This document shows, one piece after another, positions 5,316-60,990 of a DNA stretch of 64,000 bases. This DNA comes from a virus: the IMG/VR virus record IMGVR_UViG_3300040786_000066. The stretch is one strand, 5' to 3'. Every line of letters starts with the position of its first letter. Within the stretch, counting starts at the first letter, position 1. The position numbers and the translations under genes are program-made. The notes below the pieces were generated by a model. That model saw only the letters and a program-made list of their open reading frames with translations, was not told the DNA's origin and searched no databases.

Positions 5316-6086
5316 TTAGGCGGCTTTTAAACGTATTCTGGTTTTGTGTGTTTTGCTTGTGTATAATCTGATTCATGAGCTCTCAAGTTCTTCCTCATTA
5401 GCTTCCCCTCTGTCTACTTTTTTTTGAAAGAGCCACTAATTTCTCAGTGTGCTCAATTGAAAAATACGCTCTCCGCCAACTATGTTCATCAAAACCTTGC
5501 CGGTATCGTCAAGTACCTGCATAGCATTAGCATCTGACTTTACCTGATCTTCGTATATTTTAAAACTACCGCCACTCTTAAAAGCTGCTTTGCGTTTTCA
5601 GGTACAGTAGATACTCTCACTATAATATTCACACTAGTAGGGGTGTCGTGTTTTGCGATACCCTCCTCAGCTTCTTCTTCTTCTTCAGTTTCTGCGTCCA
5701 CAAGAGGCGCTTCAGTTTCTTCGGCCATTCCAACTGCGGATAAAGATCTGACGTACAGCTTATAAGTTCCCCTACAAGTCCCGCGCCTTCATCTTTATTT
5801 ACTTCTAATACAAATCGAACGCCTTCTACTGAAGTTTCAAAGTTACCTGGCTTCAAAGAACGTACAGCTACTACTTCCTTGCTCATGTTGATAAAAATCA
5901 TATCCAATGGATAGTTCATATCTTTCATGTTCATAGTAACTTTCTGCTCTTTCTTGAAATCAAACAGCATGCCTTTGTTTTACCAAGGGCTGGTTTATTT
6001 GCAAGTCCTTCCTTCATCCTAGCCGGATCAGAAATCACAGCTACTTTGAATTCAGTATCCTTTATTTTAAGCGAATATAGACTCAT
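5316..6086 (-). CDS. DUF192-like domain protein with acidic linker, frameshifted
   Basis: GMLFDF...MNMKDMNYPLDMIFIN...RFVLEVN matches the DUF192 pattern. Confidence 0.65.
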
Positions 6087-53942: not shown

Positions 53943-54680
53943 CTCAATCTTTTAAGCAACACTTCAATACGTTTGTTAAGCACTACGATCTCTTCCTCAA
54001 AAGAAGCAAAGTTTTCGAAGATGTTAACTTTCGCACGAAGTTCCCTGTGCTCTAAGAGAAGTTTTTCTTCAGAATCCAACATAATGCTAGACACGTCTAG
54101 GATCTGAATCCCTTCGCCTATAGCACTATCTAACAAGTATCCCTTGGAATCTAAGTCTTCCAGAATTAGGTTTAAAGCCCTTCTCGATACACCAGTTTCT
54201 TTAACAAGAGCGGTAATGTTGCTGATGTTTGAAATTCTTTTTCTCCTAGCATGATGACTTTTATTATAAAAGCCTTCACGGAATGGGAGAGGTCCGGTCG
54301 AGAAATGAATGAGTAGGTTATGATTTGGTATTTGATTCGTAATTTGAGAATATTGGAAACGTAAGAAGTGCCTATTTTGTTTCTGAAAAGGAAGTTATTA
54401 TCCCTTTATCCTCCAGGTCTTTAATGCATTTTCTTACAGTGTTCTTGCTCAACCCCAGTACGGTAGTAAATGTTTCTAGTGAAAGAATTCTCCTGTCACC
54501 TCCTAATTTATAAGTAGAATCCAGAAACTGGTCTATATCTATAAAAGCCAAAACGATTAGGCTTTTTGAGTCTATGTTATCGAGCTGGAAAGGAACCCTG
54601 GAATGTTTTCCAAAAGCTGTGTCTTCCTTACCTCTGTGGGTTTCTATCTTTATCTTGTTGGTCTTATTTACTGCTGTCAT
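53936..54680 (-). CDS. winged HTH DNA-binding protein(s), probably joined to the downstream GIY-YIG module
   Basis: VLGLSKNTVRKCIKDLEDKGII and KETGVSRRALNLILEDLDSKGY HTH segments. Confidence 0.55.
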
Positions 54681-54806
54681 TTCTTATATATCTAGTGGAT
54701 AAATGTACTGAAAATATGCATGATCCCTCTCTAATAATACACTATTTTAATGTAATGCACCCTCTGGATAAAGTTCCATGAAAACTCTGAAAAATAAATA
54801 CTGCTT

Positions 54807-54839
54807 TTGTTGCAAGGCAGCATATTTTTGCTATATTTG
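54807..54839 (+). promoter_or_regulatory. Bacteroidota sigma-A-type promoter, tRNA operon 1
   Basis: -7 box TATATTTG (54832-54839), with TTTG/TTG upstream. Confidence 0.65.
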
Positions 54840-54844
54840 TAATC

Positions 54845-54913
54845 ATGAAAGCAATACTACTTCATATAGAACAACCACGACCGCTACTTTGTAACGGAGG
54901 AACTTCTGTATGA
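54845..54913 (+). CDS. attenuator leader peptide 1, MKAILLHIEQPRPLLCNGGTSV
   Basis: Intact 22-codon ORF between promoter and terminator; codons CTA, CAT, GAA, CAA, CCA, CCG match the downstream tRNAs. Confidence 0.75.
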   Translation: MKAILLHIEQPRPLLCNGGTSV

Positions 54914-54951
54914 TAGGCTGATTAAATAAAAATCGTCTTAGACACATATAC

Positions 54952-54980
54952 AAAATCCTTCTAGCAATAGAGGGATTTTT
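54952..54980 (+). terminator. attenuator terminator 1
   Basis: AAAATCCTTCTA-GCAA-TAGAGGGATTTTT, 6 nt before tRNA-Pro. Confidence 0.85.
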
Positions 54981-54986
54981 GCATTT

Positions 54987-55062
54987 CGGGGTGTAGCGTA
55001 GCCCGGTCTATCGCGCCTGCTTTGGGAGCAGGAGGTCGCAGGTTCAAATCCTGCCACCCCGA
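54987..55062 (+). tRNA. tRNA-Pro(TGG)
   Basis: Cloverleaf; CCTGC-TT TGG GA-GCAGG; GGTTCAAATCC. Confidence 0.95.
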
Positions 55063-55067
55063 CAAAT

Positions 55068-55142
55068 TCAGTAGATACAGTAATTGGAAACTGGTAACTG
55101 GCTGGGTCAGTGCATGGAAGGTTCGAATCCTTTCTACTTGAC
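55068..55142 (+). tRNA. atypical tRNA-like gene, anticodon unresolved (possibly Pro-GGG with a collapsed G run)
   Basis: D arm CAGT/ACTG, T arm GAAGGTTCGAATCCTTT, anticodon arm ACTGG-CTGGG-TCAGT with a 5-nt loop. Confidence 0.55.
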
Positions 55143-55180
55143 AAAGATGTTTATGCTTTTAACTTTAAAATAAAGCGCAC

Positions 55181-55252
55181 GGCGCCATCGTCTAACGGTT
55201 AGGACAGCAGGTTTTCATCCTGCAGATAGGAGTTCGATTCTCCTTGGCGCTA
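55181..55252 (+). tRNA. tRNA-Glu(TTC)
   Basis: GCAGG-TT TTC AT-CCTGC. Confidence 0.93.
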
Positions 55253-55257
55253 CAAAC

Positions 55258-55328
55258 TGGAGTATGGTGTAATGGTAACACAACTGTTTTTGGAGCAGTC
55301 GTTTTGGGTTCGAGTCCCGATATTCCTA
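55258..55328 (+). tRNA. tRNA-Gln(TTG)
   Basis: ACTGT-TT TTG GA-GCAGT. Confidence 0.9.
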
Positions 55329-55337
55329 CTAATACAT

Positions 55338-55423
55338 GGTGTTTGTTGCAGAGCGGTCAAATGCGCCAGGTTGTGGTCCTGGTACCCGTAAGGGTTTCGT
55401 GGGTTCGATTCCATCATTCACCC
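55338..55423 (+). tRNA. tRNA-His(GTG) with long variable arm
   Basis: CCAGG-TT GTG GT-CCTGG; G-1 and C73; extra hairpin ACCC-GTAA-GGGT. Confidence 0.85.
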
Positions 55424-55643
55424 AAAATACAATAATATGTTAGTAGATAAAAGAAGAGAAGAGGCCTTGAAAAGTCTGTACTACCTTGGGGAATAGCTGT
55501 TCAGATAAAAGACAGGTGCTATGGCAAAGTTATTGATAATTATAGGCATACAAATACCTGTATTGCTGTTATACCTTCAGATAAGACTTGTGTTGAATTC
55601 TATAGAATAGAGGAACTGGCAGTACAATAATAATAATGAATAA

Positions 55644-55725
55644 GCCTTCGTGATGAAATTGGTAGACATGCTAGATTTAGGATCTAGTGTCGCAAGACGT
55701 GTTGGTTCGAGTCCGACCGAAGGTA
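55644..55725 (+). tRNA. tRNA-Leu(TAG)
   Basis: CTAGA-TT TAG GA-TCTAG; class II variable arm. Confidence 0.95.
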
Positions 55726-55779
55726 CATATTAAATATTTAGTGATTCATAGTTCGAAAATAATTTACTATATTTGAACT

Positions 55780-56251
55780 ATGGAAAATAAAAAAAAGCTG
55801 TAGCAAGTAGATTAGGTTTTGTAGTAACAGAAGAAGGAGTTGCATACAATAAAAAAGTATTGTAGGATACAAAGATCCCAGAGGGTATTGCAGATTTACT
55901 TTTAAGCTAGTAGGAGTTTCAATAAACATAGCTATTCATAGGCTGCAAGCTTTTCAGAAGTATGGAGACCTCCTTTATGAAGAAGGTACAGTTGTTCGAC
56001 ATTTAAACGGTGATCCAGGAAGTAATGCTTGGGACAATATAGCAATAGGCACTATGTCAGACAACATGTTTGATATCCCTAAGCAAATAAGAATTCGAAG
56101 AGCTGAGCATGCGTCTTCTTTGTCACACAAGCACGATCACGTTAAAATTAAACAGTGGCACATAAATAACGGAGCATCTTATAAAAATACAATGATAGAA
56201 TTTGACATATCAAGCAAAGGCACATTAAATTATATACTAAAGAAAAGTTAA
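55780..56251 (+). CDS. HNH homing endonuclease, frameshifted
   Basis: IHRLQAF..YG...VVRHLNGDPGSNAWDNIAIGTMSDN motif with a C-terminal HTH-like segment. Confidence 0.8.
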
Positions 56252-56257
56252 ATAAAG

Positions 56258-56289
56258 TTTGGTAGTTAATACAACTTGTATTACATTTG
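56258..56289 (+). promoter_or_regulatory. Bacteroidota sigma-A-type promoter, tRNA operon 2
   Basis: TTTG (56258) - 20 nt - TACATTTG (56282-56289). Confidence 0.7.
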
Positions 56290-56318
56290 GCTTTCAATAT
56301 AAAACAAAAACACTTTCA

Positions 56319-56399
56319 GTGAACACAGCAATAAACATAGCAGTAGTAATTATGACCGGGGCCGATATGGCTTTGGAAGGATCTACGTGGTATGGCTAA
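56319..56399 (+). CDS. attenuator leader peptide 2, (M)NTAINIAVVIMTGADMALEGSTWYG
   Basis: GTG-start 26-codon ORF. The in-frame upstream KTKTLS suggests a true ATG near 56299 lost to an indel. Codons match the Ala/Ile/Gly/Met/Asp/Thr/Val tRNAs downstream. Confidence 0.72.
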   Translation: MNTAINIAVVIMTGADMALEGSTWYG

Positions 56400-56424
56400 A
56401 TTGAAAGCACATATAAAATAACAC

Positions 56425-56460
56425 AAAGATCCTTCTAGAAATAGAGGGATCTTTTTTTTT
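56425..56460 (+). terminator. attenuator terminator 2
   Basis: AAAGATCCTTCTA-GAAA-TAGAGGGATC-T9. Confidence 0.88.
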
Positions 56461-56530
56461 AGGTAAGCTCTATTGGACGAGCACCTGTTTTGCATACAGG
56501 AGGTTGCGGGTTCGGGTCCCGTCTATTCCA
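56459..56530 (+). tRNA. tRNA-Ala(TGC), 5' acceptor strand incomplete in this sequence
   Basis: CCTGT-TT TGC AT-ACAGG; T arm intact; the 5' end merges with the terminator T run. Confidence 0.75.
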
Positions 56531-56537
56531 CAATAAT

Positions 56538-56610
56538 AGAAGTATAACTCAGTTGGTAGAGTGCCCGCCTGATACGTGGGTTGTCGTAGGTTCGAGCCCT
56601 GCTACTTCTA
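56538..56610 (+). tRNA. tRNA-Ile(GAT)
   Basis: CCCGC-CT GAT AC-GTGGG. Confidence 0.92.
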
Positions 56611-56622
56611 CAAAATTTAAAC

Positions 56623-56697
56623 GCAGCAATCGCATAGTTGGTCAATTGTACCTGACTTCCAATCAGGATATCGTGAGTTCGAATCTCACTTGCTGCA
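56623..56697 (+). tRNA. tRNA-Gly(TCC)
   Basis: CCTGA-CT TCC AA-TCAGG. Confidence 0.92.
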
Positions 56698-56707
56698 CAG
56701 AATATAT

Positions 56708-56780
56708 TGCGAGATAGAGCAGCGGTAGCTCGTGGGTTTCATAAGCCTAAGGTCGTGGGTTCGAATCCCACTCTTCGCAA
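56708..56780 (+). tRNA. tRNA-Met(CAT), initiator-like D arm
   Basis: TGGGT-TT CAT AA-GCCTA; GAGCAGCGGTAGCTCG. Confidence 0.88.
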
Positions 56781-56785
56781 CAAAT

Positions 56786-56859
56786 GGTATTGCAGCATAT
56801 TGGCGTATGACGCTCCCCTGTCACGGGAGAGATTGAGGATTCGAATTCCTTCAGTACCG
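56786..56859 (+). tRNA. tRNA-Asp(GTC)
   Basis: CTCCC-CT GTC AC-GGGAG; G73. Confidence 0.9.
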
Positions 56860-56865
56860 CAACAT

Positions 56866-56938
56866 TCCCGAGTAGCTCAGTTGGTAGAGCGCTTGCCTTG
56901 TAAGCAAGATGTCGCAGGTTCAAGCCCTGTCTTGGGAT
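56866..56938 (+). tRNA. tRNA-Thr(TGT)
   Basis: CTTGC-CT TGT AA-GCAAG. Confidence 0.95.
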
Positions 56939-56942
56939 CTAT

Positions 56943-57017
56943 GCAGCAATAGCTCAGTTGGTTCAGAGCGTCTGGTTTACACCCAGAGGGTCGTAGGTTC
57001 GAATCCTTCTTGCTGTA
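56943..57017 (+). tRNA. tRNA-Val(TAC)
   Basis: TCTGG-TT TAC AC-CCAGA. Confidence 0.93.
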
Positions 57018-57022
57018 CAAAT

Positions 57023-57095
57023 CGCCCCATAGCTCAGTAGGTAGAGCACTCCCCTCATAAGGGATAGGTCACGAGTTCGAATCTCGTTGAGGCAA
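57023..57095 (+). tRNA. tRNA-CAT (elongator Met or lysidine-modified Ile2)
   Basis: TCCC-CT CAT AA-GGGA; standard D and T arms. Confidence 0.85.
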
Positions 57096-57115
57096 CTAAT
57101 TATTTTAACAAATAC

Positions 57116-57146
57116 TTGCACCGTATGTGTTATAGTAGTATATTTA
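57116..57146 (+). promoter_or_regulatory. Bacteroidota sigma-A-type promoter, tRNA operon 3
   Basis: TTG (57116) ... TATATTTA (57139-57146), one mismatch to TAnnTTTG. Confidence 0.55.
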
Positions 57147-57162
57147 CAGCTTAGAAAATAAA

Positions 57163-57234
57163 ATGAAAACACTTTCTTGTTCATATAATAGTTTTAATTC
57201 TTGGTTCTTCGGACCGAGCAAGACTATCGTATGA
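57163..57234 (+). CDS. attenuator leader peptide 3, MKTLSCSYNSFNSWFFGPSKTIV
   Basis: Intact 23-codon ORF; codons 5-16 are all Ser/Cys/Tyr/Asn/Phe/Trp, the tRNA set downstream. Confidence 0.8.
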   Translation: MKTLSCSYNSFNSWFFGPSKTIV

Positions 57235-57264
57235 TAAAGTGAACAACATATAAATCATCGAATT

Positions 57265-57295
57265 AAAGTCTTGCAGAAATGCAGGGCTTTTTTTT
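57265..57295 (+). terminator. attenuator terminator 3
   Basis: AAAGTCTTGCA-GAAA-TGCAGGGC-T8. Confidence 0.88.
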
Positions 57296-57304
57296 GTTTA
57301 ATAA

Positions 57305-57389
57305 GAGAGTCCAAAGTCAGCTTGGATCTGGCAGCCGGACTGTAAATCCGGTCTTGTTACGGGGAGAGGTTCGAGTCCTCGGGTTCTCA
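57305..57389 (+). tRNA. tRNA-Tyr(GTA)
   Basis: CCGGA-CT GTA AA-TCCGG; long variable arm. Confidence 0.85.
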
Positions 57390-57396
57390 CAATAAA

Positions 57397-57484
57397 GGAA
57401 GGTTAATCCAAGTTGGTCTAAGGGATGCGGTCTTGAAAACCGTTAGTCGTAATTGGCGTGTGGGTTCGAGTCCTACACCTTCCG
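57397..57484 (+). tRNA. tRNA-Ser(TGA)
   Basis: GCGGT-CT TGA AA-ACCGT; long variable arm; G73. Confidence 0.92.
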
Positions 57485-57488
57485 CAAC

Positions 57489-57576
57489 AGAAGAATGTCC
57501 GAGAGGCTGAAAGAGCTCGTCCGCTAAACGAGTGTGCATGGAATATGGCACCGTGGGTTCGAATCCACTTCTTCTA
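57489..57576 (+). tRNA. tRNA-Ser(GCT)
   Basis: CTCGT-CC GCT AA-ACGAG (C at position 33); long variable arm. Confidence 0.82.
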
Positions 57577-57583
57577 CAAATAT

Positions 57584-57656
57584 TCTTGTGTAGCTCAGTG
57601 GTCAGAGCGTCCGACTGTTAATCGGAGGGCCGTAGGTTCAAATCCTACCTCAAGAG
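57584..57656 (+). tRNA. tRNA-Asn(GTT)
   Basis: TCCGA-CT GTT AA-TCGGA. Confidence 0.95.
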
Positions 57657-57662
57657 CAAAAT

Positions 57663-57736
57663 ACGCTGGTGTCCGAGTGGTCCAAGGAAGATGTCTGCAA
57701 AACTGAAGAGCGTGAGTTCGAATCTCACCCGGCGTT
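57663..57736 (+). tRNA. tRNA-Cys(GCA)
   Basis: Loop CT GCA AA and U73; anticodon stem weak as sequenced. Confidence 0.8.
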
Positions 57737-57814
57737 CTAGAATCTACAGACTGTAGCGTGCTGTAGCTCTATCTTGTTGCCAATAAAATAAGACCTAATT
57801 TTAAAGTAAACATA

Positions 57815-58145
57815 ATGAATACAAGTACAAAACAAACTGAAAATTTAGCCAAATGTAGCGATAAGTCAAAACCATTGTTAGTGGCAGTTACTTGTCAATT
57901 AACTGAACGTGGTTTTCAACTAAAAACAGAGATAAAGTTAATGATGATAGGTTAGGTATAAAATTATCTTTTACAAATGAAGTTGGTAAATATGTTGAAA
58001 TTTACGATGAAGATACTTATTTGCATATTTTGCATTATGGATTTGATGGCAAATATTTACCTATTGGGTTTGATGTTTTATTTATAAAGATATTAAAAAA
58101 TATGGCGCGTTTTTAGACGGTATTTTGGCTAATTGCCTGTAGCAC
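57815..58145 (+). CDS. small hypothetical protein inserted in tRNA operon 3, frameshifted
   Basis: MNTSTKQTENLAKCSDKSKPLLVAVTCQLTERGFQLK...; AT-rich. Confidence 0.45.
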
Positions 58146-58211
58146 TTTGCTAAACGATATCAACTTAAGAGTGAGCCTTGTTATGATTGTCAAAAGTTGC
58201 TACAGTAAAAT

Positions 58212-58284
58212 AGTCGCCAGCATAATGGCATGCAGCAGGTCTCCAACACCTTGCATGGATGAGGTTCGATTCCTCAGGTGATTG
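58212..58284 (+). tRNA. tRNA-Trp(CCA)
   Basis: AGGT-CT CCA AC-ACCT; TGAGGTTCGATTCCTCA; G73. Confidence 0.8.
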
Positions 58285-58287
58285 CTA

Positions 58288-58358
58288 AGGAAAGTAGCTC
58301 AGGGTAGAGCACCAGATTGAAGATCTGGGTGTCGGTGGTTCGAGACCACCTTTTCCCA
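58288..58358 (+). tRNA. tRNA-Phe(GAA)
   Basis: CCAGA-TT GAA GA-TCTGG. Confidence 0.88.
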
Positions 58359-58592
58359 CTTATAAACCTACTGTTTATTTAATAAGCTAACACGTACTAA
58401 AAACTTGAGTTAAATTTTAATAGTATAAATTTGGTTATTATATTAATTTTAGTATATTCGTAGTCCCAAACCATTTGTTATGTATATGCTATTTTTTACT
58501 GTTGGAGTAGTTATAGGTATTATTCTATATCGTTTCTTTGCGACGATCCAAAATTAGCAAATAACCAGACAAAATCAAACCTACTAAAACCA

Positions 58593-58619
58593 AGCCCTGC
58601 CCCAAGCAAGGCTTTTTTT
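58593..58619 (+). terminator. intrinsic terminator closing the tRNA region
   Basis: AAGCCCTGC-CCCAA-GCAAGGCTTTTTT. Confidence 0.65.
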
Positions 58620-58687
58620 ATATGCCTCGGTTTCTGCTTTCTTTAAAACCTGATTTTAGTATTATAATAAGTACTAGCACATTCGAT

Positions 58688-60990
58688 ATGATATACTATA
58701 GCAAACAAAAGTACAGGCGGCACAACAGGGTGCTATATTACTAAACAACGATGCTCGATTGAGAAACGCTGTTCTAAGAAACGTAAGGACTATGGGCGGA
58801 CCAATGAAAAAACAACTCCGGTAACGCCTTTTAAAAGCCTCTATAGCCCCTTTAAAACAAAGTTTTCCTTCTAGAGTAAACGAGTCCACAAACGTTCCAA
58901 AATAAAGCCGCTCCTTACAACTCAAGAAGCAGCAAATAGCTTGACTGTTAAAGAAAAGCCGGAGTAGCAAAAGCCTACTTAAACGAGTGGATGGCTTCAC
59001 CCAGGTATATGGAAATGATCAAAACAAGCGCCCCTAAAACTTCCAAAAATAACGGAAAGAAGACAGGCTGATTTATACTCCGCGCAAGCAAGCTACATGC
59101 ATAGAGATAAAGGAAACACTGCTGCTGACTCCAGAAATTCGGACGGCAGTATTCGAGTATTCCGAAAAGGTGTAGGTACTAACGGTACTCTAGTGCATGA
59201 GATGTCGCACTCAAGCGACAGAACTGGCCGAAGTACAGGCGAAAGGCTGCCCATAACGGATGTAAAAGAATAGCAATGTTCTCCAATAGCGCTTATAGTG
59301 CAGTTAATAAAATAGTTCCAAATGAAAGAGCTGAAAGAAGAAGATGGGTATCTTATGTCACAGACCCTACAGAAACAAGAGCGCGATTAAATGACGTCCG
59401 ATTTCAGTCTAAAGAGCGCAGTATTTACGACCCCTAAGCAAAAAAGTTACTCCTGAAATATATGACAATATGAAAAGCCAAAATTTTGAAGATGAACAAC
59501 ACAGTGGCTTCGATGCTTTAAAACAGCTGAGAGGAATCTACTCAGACAAGGAAGTAATAAACTTATTGAACACCGTATCTGAAAATAAAAGAAAGCCCTT
59601 CCAAACAACATTGAACCACGATACTCATGATCTACTATAACAATAAAAGCGCCTCTGCCAAGTTACAGACCGGAGGTCAGACTCCCAAAGAATTCCAGAC
59701 AGAATACATCCAGTCCTCTAAATACGCAGCGCGACTTAAGAGTAGCGGATATCAAGCCATACCTAAAGTAGTTGAAAAAGACTTGGCCAAGTAGAACAAA
59801 CCGGGCTAAACAAATATAGAAAACACTGGGTGAGGCCTTGATGTCTTTCAAGTCCCTGCAGGCACCGGTAGTCATTTCGATAATTCAAGAGTCAACATAG
59901 ATTATAAAACTGATCTACATGATTTAAAAAAAGGATATCCAGGAATGACCATGCCTAGCCCAATAGAAGTAGAAGCACATGAGTTTTCTCATCCAAGTGT
60001 AGCCGATCTAAAAGGCTTATCACAAGATAATATCATGAACGATTACGACAACAGACAGCTTATTGGCAGAGGCCAGCGCCTTCCGTACGTAAACGACCAC
60101 GATAAAAGAGCCAGTGAAAACAAGGCGGACATCGACGCCTACAGGTACATGCTGAAACAGAAAGGTGTACGACGCCGGCAAGGAGACCTTCACGAAAGAA
60201 CATCTGAAAACAATTCCAAGAATTTCAGTCGAGAACGCCTTCAAAGAAACTACTCTGATAAAAATCTGATCTGGCTTATGAACAACGTGGCTTCATCTCC
60301 GTCAGTGCCTTCGGCTTCGCCGCCTGTCGCGGGATCGAGTCCTCTTGTACCTTATAATAATTCGCAGCGCGTAATGAAAGCCGGCATGCAAATGGATTGG
60401 GATGCAGTTAGAAATGTTAACGACAACGGCCTTGTGCAAACTGCTAAGATATTTGACCCTACTGGAATATCTTCCTATCCCGATGTGTACTATGCCTATA
60501 AAGATATGGTTGCAGGAAAAGGGTCCGCTACAAATTTGGGACTTAATATATTAGAGCTCTACCGGTAATAGGTAAAGCCAAGACTATATTTAGAATGGCC
60601 AAACTAAACAGGGTTGGAAAACCTACTGTAGGCTTAATAAAAGCAATGGATGGAGTAGCGTCAATAACCTCAAGCATAAACAAAGTTACCGGGGCACCAG
60701 TAGCCTACGCAAGAACTCTTTCAGGATCGAGCAATAGGGTAGTTCGAGGTGCGTCCTACTTAGCAAAAGGAGCTGATAATATAAGTACAAACCTCGCTAA
60801 AAAATTAAGGCCTACTGGAGAAAAGTATTCTTATAAAGTAATTACCAACTCTGACTATAAAACCTAGGAGTAGACGTGCTAGATACAGGAACTTTTACAT
60901 GACTTAAATGCTGCCGTATCTACAGCAGTGCCTACAAAGAAATCACTGATCGATAAAAATAAAAAAATTGTTTTACAGACTCGAATAATG
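58688..60990 (+). CDS. large putative virion protein(s) with two HExxH zincin-like motifs, frameshifted
   Basis: LVHEMSHSSD (~59190) followed by YVTDPTETRARL; EAHEFSHPS (~59975); late-promoter motif at 58657. Confidence 0.5.

Follow-up and report, generated by a model that had tools for sequence, protein, structure and literature searches.

Why would a phage place a transcription terminator between a promoter and the tRNA genes that lie behind it? The question is raised by IMG/VR virus record IMGVR_UViG_3300040786_000066, the whole 64,000-nucleotide (nt) stretch of which is here called the window; all positions are counted along it unless another contig is named. The tRNA genes of this phage form an array at 54.9 to 58.4 kb (54987-58359) that is divided into three blocks, each headed by a promoter box, a short open reading frame (ORF), and a terminator. 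What phage tRNA genes are for has been a matter of debate for about 50 years, the proposals being codon compensation, decay of host tRNAs, and evasion of defenses that cleave tRNAs, and to our knowledge the regulation of these genes is almost unstudied. We propose that the leader of the first block, termed unit 1, is most probably a ribosome-mediated (leader-peptide) transcription attenuator acting on a Pro-Pro-Glu-Gln-His-Leu tRNA block. This proposal is based on the anatomy of the unit, the match between its codons and the tRNAs that follow, the alternative folds computed for its RNA, and conservation across phage families.

Anatomy of the leader of the first tRNA block

Unit 1 presents, in order within 54832-54983, a -7 promoter box, a 22-codon ORF, and a hairpin with a U-tract, beyond which lies a tRNA-Pro gene. 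Its component parts are as follows.

54832-54839, plus strand: -7 promoter box of the Bacteroidota type (TAnnTTTG), read in the sequence
54845-54913, plus strand: leader ORF 1, 22 codons, ATG to TGA, from the ORF call
54857-54889, plus strand: sensor run, codons 5-15 (Leu Leu His Ile Glu Gln Pro Arg Pro Leu Leu), with 9 of 11 codons matched by a downstream tRNA
54862-54871, plus strand: region 1, the 5' strand of the predicted anti-antiterminator helix (helix 1:2), from folding
54896-54913, plus strand: region 2, including GGAGGA (54896-54901), TGTATG (54907-54912), and the stop codon, from folding
54945-54950, plus strand: CATATA, the inner 3' strand of the predicted antiterminator, from masked folding
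54953-54983, plus strand: intrinsic terminator (the attenuator), an 11-bp stem with one G-U pair, a GCAA loop, and an interrupted U-tract, from folding
54987-55726, plus strand: tRNA block 1, namely, Pro(TGG), a second Pro(TGG), Glu(TTC), Gln(TTG), His(GTG), and Leu(TAG)

The ATG of leader ORF 1 comes 5 nt after the TAnnTTTG box, a consensus that reportedly goes back to Bayley et al. in 2000, and such a box stands 4 to 7 nt ahead of the start codon in 10 related leaders. As this short distance holds for most unit-1 and unit-3 leaders, leaderless mRNAs are implied, and the unit 1 transcript, with its start placed from the position of the box, would likewise be leaderless or nearly so. The presumed host phylum, Bacteroidota, relies little on Shine-Dalgarno pairing, which suits such a start. 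A 39-nt spacer separates the stop codon of the ORF from the hairpin, and tRNA-Pro(TGG) starts at 54987, just 8 nt past the hairpin, with no space for a further promoter in between. Since the terminator thus lies between the promoter box and the tRNA, the tRNAs of unit 1 would be made solely by read-through. The element around which the proposed switch turns is region 2, which has two possible pairing partners, region 1 on the one hand and the 5' arm of the terminator together with CATATA on the other.

Correspondence between leader codons and tRNA blocks

As in known attenuators, leader ORF 1 carries clustered codons that are cognate to what its operon supplies, and this match is specific both to the reading frame and to the leader's own block. 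With the anticodons of each block decoded by standard wobble rules, 9 of the 11 codons in the sensor run (codons 5-15) are read by the following tRNAs (Pro, Pro, Glu, Gln, His, and Leu). Of 10498 background windows of the same length drawn from the long ORFs of the window, 13 reached at least 9 of 11, and none reached the 10 of 11 that results from counting an ancestral tRNA-Arg(ACG). For leaders 1, 2, and 3 of the window, the codons cognate to the leader's own block number 9, 18, and 13, versus 1 to 7 for the other blocks. When the three leaders of each of four genomes were permuted over the blocks, the own pairing gave 182 cognate codons versus a mean of 96 and was the sole one of the 1296 permutations to reach 182, although the four genomes are related and the permutations are thus not independent trials. 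Across 16 leaders, 56% of the codons are cognate in the ORF frame versus 18% and 19% in the shifted frames, and because these frames comprise the same bases, base composition is ruled out as the cause.

The leaders also follow the gain and loss of individual tRNAs. The window is the sole lineage without tRNA-Leu(TAA) and the sole one with a unit-1 leader free of TTR codons, all five relatives that possess tRNA-Leu(TAA) using two to four such codons. Similarly, it is the sole lineage without tRNA-Lys and tRNA-Arg(TCT) and the sole one with neither AAR nor AGR codons (0 of each) in its unit-2 leader. In the relatives described below, tRNA-Leu(TAA) stands beside tRNA-Leu(TAG) at the end of block 1 in U5, M139, and phage phi4:1, though not in phage phi38:1, whereas tRNA-Arg(ACG) closes the block in all four.

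The original prediction, made from the letters of the window, had called unit 1 a CNN/GAA codon sensor, a fair description of the tRNA block that leaves out the ATA (Ile) codon of the run, unserved by that block. It had also pointed to the CGA (Arg) codon of the leader and suggested that a tRNA-Arg might have been lost near an HNH insertion. Indeed, the leader contains CGA, the tRNA region (54700-58500) holds no tRNA-Arg, and an HNH_3 gene occupies the site at which relatives keep tRNA-Arg(ACG); hence, the CGA codon is best read as a relic. Each of six unit-1 leaders keeps exactly one CGN codon.

Computed alternative folds and their dependence on ribosome position

The minimum free energy (MFE) fold of 54830-54990 has an energy of -36 kcal/mol (z score, -3.4), with none of 200 shuffled sequences folding as well, and in unit 1 it holds helix 1:2, the CCG/CGG hairpin that this helix encloses, and the terminator. 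Helix 1:2 joins 54862-54871 to 54904-54913 in 10 bp with one G-U pair, precisely where it had been predicted; the enclosed hairpin is likewise as foreseen, and GGAGGA, which had been expected to be sequestered, is buried in part. On its own, the helix 1:2 duplex is worth -11.1 kcal/mol (z score, -5.2), a value matched by 0 of 1000 shuffles. The terminator pairs 54953-54963 with 54968-54978 around its GCAA loop (-13.2 kcal/mol) and is followed by UUUUU GC AUUU.

The effect of translation was modeled by folding the nascent leader RNA as far as the terminator loop while a ribosome footprint of 28 nt (A-site -15 to +12) was kept unpaired and shifted codon by codon, the readout being the probability that the 5' arm of the terminator pairs with upstream sequence. 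With no ribosome on unit 1, this sequestration of the 5' arm is 0.19, and helix 1:2 is formed. It is 0.5 to 0.7 with the A-site on codons 3-14 and 0.10 to 0.19 once the A-site is at codon 15 or any later position through the stop, region 2 then being covered. The ribosome positions that turn the switch on coincide with the sensor run, and the model bears out the expectation that a ribosome stalled on Leu-Leu-His-Ile-Glu-Gln-Pro would cover region 1 and free region 2 (0.5 to 0.7 versus 0.1 to 0.2 otherwise). The fold computed for the "on" state combines GGAGGA:TCCTTC (54896-54901 with 54956-54961) and TGTATG:CATATA (54907-54912 with 54945-54950), with a local hairpin nested between the two; RNAfold returns both pairings, which had been anticipated as GGAGGA:TCCTTC and GTATG:CATAT, once region 1 is masked.

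This behavior extends beyond unit 1, in that all 16 leaders show a sharp drop in sequestration right after their own cognate run. Region 2 also pairs better with the terminator 5' arm of its own leader than with those of other leaders (mean of -11.1 versus -7.6 kcal/mol; 14 leaders, permutation P < 5e-5), and perfect 8- to 9-bp complements between the two are present in units 2 and 3 of the window and in unit 3 of phi4:1. Units 2 and 3 have no strong 1:2 helix, so that in these the untranslated RNA folds into the antiterminator by default.

Conservation and wider occurrence

A megablast search of the phage collection for close relatives returned none, the nearest record (G001) being identical and ending inside the leader. 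Leader 1 is identical in two other assemblies (G001 and L006), and for this reason the sister assembly, L006, is uninformative on covariation. With the neighboring HTH gene (54372-54680, minus strand; Pfam HTH_24/HTH_36) as bait, we recovered L006, in which all leaders are identical to those of the window, along with U5 (L005; 64% identity) and the marine metagenome contigs M139 and M138 (L139 and L138; 73 to 78%). The latter three have a unit-1 orthologue at the same place, with the His-Ile-Glu core kept, the same terminator, and stronger antiterminators (7 to 8 bp). BLAST searches with the tRNAs led to Cellulophaga phage phi4:1, which shares the order of the array, its three-way split, and all three leaders. 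The tRNA order is also that of phage phi17:2, which carries a small ORF at the corresponding position, its leaders lying outside those compared. Further leaders were found in Cellulophaga phages phi38:1 (three) and phi10:1 (one) and in Tenacibaculum phage Gundel_1 (one), which belong to different phage families. A scan of viral contigs for the terminator motif, set aside as a source of new cases, returned known lineages only, plus an unrelated terminator (L011), and a scan with the leader-3 pattern found known contigs only.

Helix 1:2 is present in the per-sequence folds of all four orthologues, even though the folding algorithm is biased toward finding pairs. Across them, one pair is T-A, C-G, G-C, or T-G; another, at the third base of the Ile codon, is A-T or C-G; and a third is A-T or G-C. 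In these modeled folds, such double changes are suggestive of a conserved helix. The corresponding shuffle z scores of the duplex are -5.2 in the window, -1.1 in U5, -2.7 in M138, and -1.3 in M139.

As a negative control, a scan for a phage-type tRNA-Glu motif yielded more than 120 unrelated viral contigs, 79 of which were examined, and an automatic procedure that took the longest ORF near each terminator-like site before a tRNA gave 32 candidates. Thirty of these ORFs were 0 to 42% cognate, 28 of them at most 25%. The other two stand apart, one in L088 (7589-7717) with 34 of 41 codons cognate and one in L090 (6793-6891) with 26 of 31. Going by their codon content, they are likely to be further attenuators in other phage lineages.

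Certain leader ORFs overlap genes annotated as hypothetical proteins, namely, gp066, gp067 (on the opposite strand), and gp070 of phi38:1 (L015 853-960, 2314-2445, and 3494-3676) and gp075 of phi4:1 (L012 4635-4754). These are probably misannotated leader peptides.

An ACATATA-like motif lies 5 to 15 nt before nearly all related terminators (54944-54950, 56410-56416, and 57246-57252 in the window), and a GTATG motif lies near the end of the ORF; both recur across paralogues and phage families. The two form the inner helix of the antiterminator, yet they are conserved in sequence rather than covarying, which hints at an additional role, perhaps as a pause, processing, or protein-binding site.

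Proposed mechanism and competing explanations

Taking these findings together, we postulate the following scenario, inferring from the evidence above where transcription starts, that the ORF is translated, that ribosomes stall on it, and what this means for regulation. Transcription would begin at the AUG or immediately upstream of it, with a ribosome loading at once. When tRNAs for Leu, His, Glu, Gln, and Pro (and Arg) are ample, whether from host or phage, the ribosome would reach the stop codon and sit on region 2, upon which the terminator hairpin would form and the polymerase would halt 8 nt before tRNA-Pro. Slow decoding of any of these codons would stall the ribosome over region 1, such that region 2 could pair with the 5' arm and CATATA ahead of synthesis of the 3' arm, resulting in read-through and transcription of the tRNA block. 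Were there no translation at all, helix 1:2 would form and unit 1 would terminate. The net outcome would be a negative feedback on tRNA supply. Amino acid starvation would open the sensor too, as a lack of tRNA and a lack of charging would be indistinguishable to it.

Several observations weigh against this proposal. Taken over its whole length, leader ORF 1 has just 9 of 21 codons cognate, a level equaled by 312 of the 10498 background windows, and both the ATA (Ile) and the CGA (Arg) codons of the run find no tRNA in block 1. The terminator of unit 1 is weaker than those of units 2 and 3, its U-tract is interrupted, and a simple terminator scan flagged units 2 and 3 and not unit 1. The unit 1 duplex between region 2 and the 5' arm attains just -8.2 kcal/mol (z score, -2.1), its own arm ranking 7th of 14, and the antiterminator of this unit thus belongs to the weaker ones in the family. 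Column-based covariation on the four close orthologues gave no signal and had no power, the MAFFT alignment misaligning the 3' strand of helix 1:2, and RNAalifold on the same four recovered just two elements, the terminator and the central hairpin, and no double changes; the compensatory changes sought in homologues are thus seen in the per-sequence folds of helix 1:2 and are absent from the column-based tests. The contig of the window also carries small deletion errors, although leader 1 is identical in two other assemblies. Finally, at equilibrium the terminator prevails on the full unit 1 leader (P of 0.97, an advantage of about 7.5 kcal/mol), and masking region 1 does not change this. Since it always wins on the complete leader, we dropped the notion of an equilibrium switch, and antitermination must be kinetic, with the antiterminator forming first. 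The expectation that the antiterminator would compete once region 1 is masked accordingly holds before the 3' arm is transcribed and fails at equilibrium on the full leader. Kinetic antitermination is the accepted situation in the trp leader of Escherichia coli too.

Among the competing explanations, the one that survives best, although we regard it as unlikely, is that the leader is translated but regulates by another route, such as a block to Rho loading, an effect on precursor stability or RNase access, or a control of opposite sign similar to that of pyrBI, in which fast translation gives read-through. It draws on the longer orthologues (U5, M139, and leader C of phi38:1), whose stop codons lie beyond region 2 and in which sequestration of the 5' arm rises again with the ribosome at the stop, so that folding by itself does not fix the timing. 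Against it, the stop codon of unit 1 itself falls within region 2, as in trpL-type attenuators, the switch point is the end of the cognate run in 16 of 16 leaders, and a model based on Rho or stability needs no complementarity between region 2 and the terminator arm.

Somewhat less probable again is that the hairpin is an ordinary terminator or insulator, or else a 5' processing or stability element of the tRNA precursor, with the ORF being incidental. The modest strength of the unit 1 terminator, which the simple scan passed over, would agree with this, as would the hairpin-plus-T sites before tRNAs in unrelated phages, which mostly come without a matching ORF. It is countered by the position of the tRNAs, reachable only through the terminator; by the conservation of the ORF frame, its codon content, and the complementarity to the terminator arm; and by codons that track the tRNAs across several phage genera.

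A translation-independent RNA sensor binding tRNA directly in the manner of a T-box would fit the fact that the products are tRNAs and that alternative terminator and antiterminator folds exist, but we consider it very improbable. An Rfam cmscan of 54300-58800 at E ≤ 1 returned the tRNAs and chance hits, none of them in 54845-54983, and no match to the Trp_leader, His_leader, Leu_leader, Thr_leader, Phe_leader, or T-box models. Moreover, the codon signal is specific to the frame (56% versus 18 to 19%), extends over five to seven amino acids, and uses synonymous codons that follow the isoacceptors present. Equally remote is the idea that the ORFs encode small functional peptides with the tRNA match as a by-product, for although some are annotated as hypothetical proteins (phi4:1 gp075 and phi38:1 gp066) and the peptides repeatedly show a short Met-Lys-Thr/Ala motif at the N terminus and a Gly-Gly-Thr tail, there is no peptide conservation beyond composition, the amino acid repertoire shifts with the tRNA block, and the recurrent tail falls on the RNA strand engaged in pairing with the terminator.

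Other units and genes of the tRNA array

Beyond block 1, the array includes two paralogous units and an HNH_3 gene.

55780-56251, plus strand: HNH_3 homing endonuclease gene (Pfam) with its own promoter box, at the site that holds tRNA-Leu(TAA) and tRNA-Arg(ACG) in relatives
56279-56460, plus strand: unit 2, with a promoter box, a GTG-started leader ORF (56319-56399), and a terminator (56425-56454)
57141-57297, plus strand: unit 3, with a promoter box, a leader ORF (57163-57234), and a terminator (57265-57290)

Unit 2 precedes the Ala/Ile/Gly/Met/Asp/Thr/Val/Met tRNAs and unit 3 the Tyr/Ser/Ser/Asn/Cys tRNAs, with Trp and Phe further on. Units 1 and 2 share a repeated terminator core, which has 2 copies in the window versus 0 expected. 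Unit-2 leaders in three lineages share a conserved GTG start after a 20- to 30-nt A-rich untranslated stretch (window 56319, L005 around 8380, and L012 around 4670), whereas most unit-1 and unit-3 leaders start with ATG 4 to 7 nt past the promoter box. The array as a whole is divided by first codon base, and both this division and the gene order are kept across several Flavobacteriaceae phage families (the window, L005, L012, and L015): block 1 reads CNN and GAR (plus UUR in relatives), block 2 ANN and GNN, and block 3 UNN together with AAY and AGY. In U5 (L005 around 5380-5920, minus strand), the unit-3 terminator is followed by a sequence resembling the 5' half of tRNA-Tyr, an ORF with an HNH-like Cys/His motif, and an intact tRNA-Tyr, an arrangement that may be a homing endonuclease insertion or an intron remnant.

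The HNH_3 gene is intact in the sister assembly (159 amino acids; L006 5804-6283) but disrupted in the window, where it has lost 1, 4, and 3 bases in three deletions situated at purine or T runs within 560 bases; these would be small assembly errors or, alternatively, very recent decay. Small deletions in the assembly account for the scarcity of long ORFs across the 64 kb; an alternative genetic code was considered as the cause and rejected, as no single stop reassignment opens the frames. Four tRNAs, namely, the second Pro (55068-55142), Ala(TGC) (56462-56530), Cys(GCA) (57663-57736), and Trp(CCA) (58212-58285), fall below the default threshold of ARAGORN and were recovered by Rfam or with a relaxed threshold; in the sister assembly, two of them, the Pro and Ala copies, pass as normal calls. 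Small deletions may explain these cases as well. Small ORFs without Pfam hits lie within or just after the array at 57815-57955, 57977-58087, and 58480-58557; the last of these encodes a hydrophobic 25-residue peptide and is followed by a two-way terminator at about 58592-58614.

Implications and comparison with known systems

If the proposed attenuator is correct, unit 1 would constitute a direct feedback loop on decoding capacity, in which the sensor codons are read by the very tRNAs under control. The phage would thereby gauge tRNA sufficiency for each codon class, and the leaders would offer a handle on which tRNAs become limiting during infection. Several annotated hypothetical proteins in phage tRNA arrays would also turn out to be leader peptides. 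One broader possibility, which we put forward only tentatively and would sooner bet against, is that the three attenuators achieve on-demand tRNA replacement, with each tracking one codon class (approximately CNN plus GAR, ANN plus GNN, and UNN plus AAY and AGY) and turning on its block when the host pool collapses, be it through host tRNA decay, host shutoff, or an anticodon nuclease defense. The arrays would then represent regulated counterdefense or homeostasis rather than constitutive supplements to codon usage, and the module might have passed in one piece from one Flavobacteriaceae phage family to another, unrelated one. As these modules are also found in phages of cultured, genetically characterized Cellulophaga baltica systems, the attenuator hypothesis is testable now; infection transcriptomes exist for C. 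baltica with phi38:1 or phi4:1 (PMC5335546).

Several parallels are offered by systems already known. The T-box riboswitches resemble unit 1 in sensing tRNA status through a terminator/antiterminator switch but bind uncharged tRNA without translation, by means of a specifier loop and the T-box sequence, whereas the signal in unit 1 depends on the reading frame. In mycobacteria, leaderless short polycysteine ORFs described as Cys-responsive attenuators likewise come first on the transcript and carry codons that report on supply; these reportedly differ in belonging to chromosomal cysteine metabolism operons, in sensing a single amino acid, and in working by a mechanism other than a hairpin terminator beside tRNA genes (bioRxiv 10.1101/834739). 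In the portions of the literature available to us, among them those of PMC4810235, PMC7412058, and PMC5335546, we found no description of leader-peptide attenuation of tRNA genes.

The pheST attenuator of E. coli comes close in that a leader peptide controls a component of the translation apparatus through the decoding of cognate codons, but its target is a protein enzyme, it is chromosomal and senses one amino acid, and its output is not itself read by the sensor. The nearest counterparts in architecture are the leaders of proteobacterial amino acid operons (trpL, hisL, leuL, and pheL), with their short ORF, regulatory codons, and overlapping 1:2, 2:3, and 3:4 helices. As in unit 1, a ribosome that has finished a trpL-type leader covers region 2 from the stop codon, and the terminator lies just before the regulated genes; the thrL and ilvGMEDA leaders further share with it the joint sensing of several amino acids. 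Unit 1 departs from the trpL type in being directed at tRNA genes rather than enzymes, in sensing decoding capacity rather than amino acid supply, and in residing on a phage of a presumed Bacteroidota host with an apparently leaderless mRNA and no sequence or Rfam relationship to these leaders. The class of mechanism is classical, and what is new is the target (tRNA genes), the setting (Flavobacteriaceae phages), and the use of multicodon sensors specific to each tRNA block.
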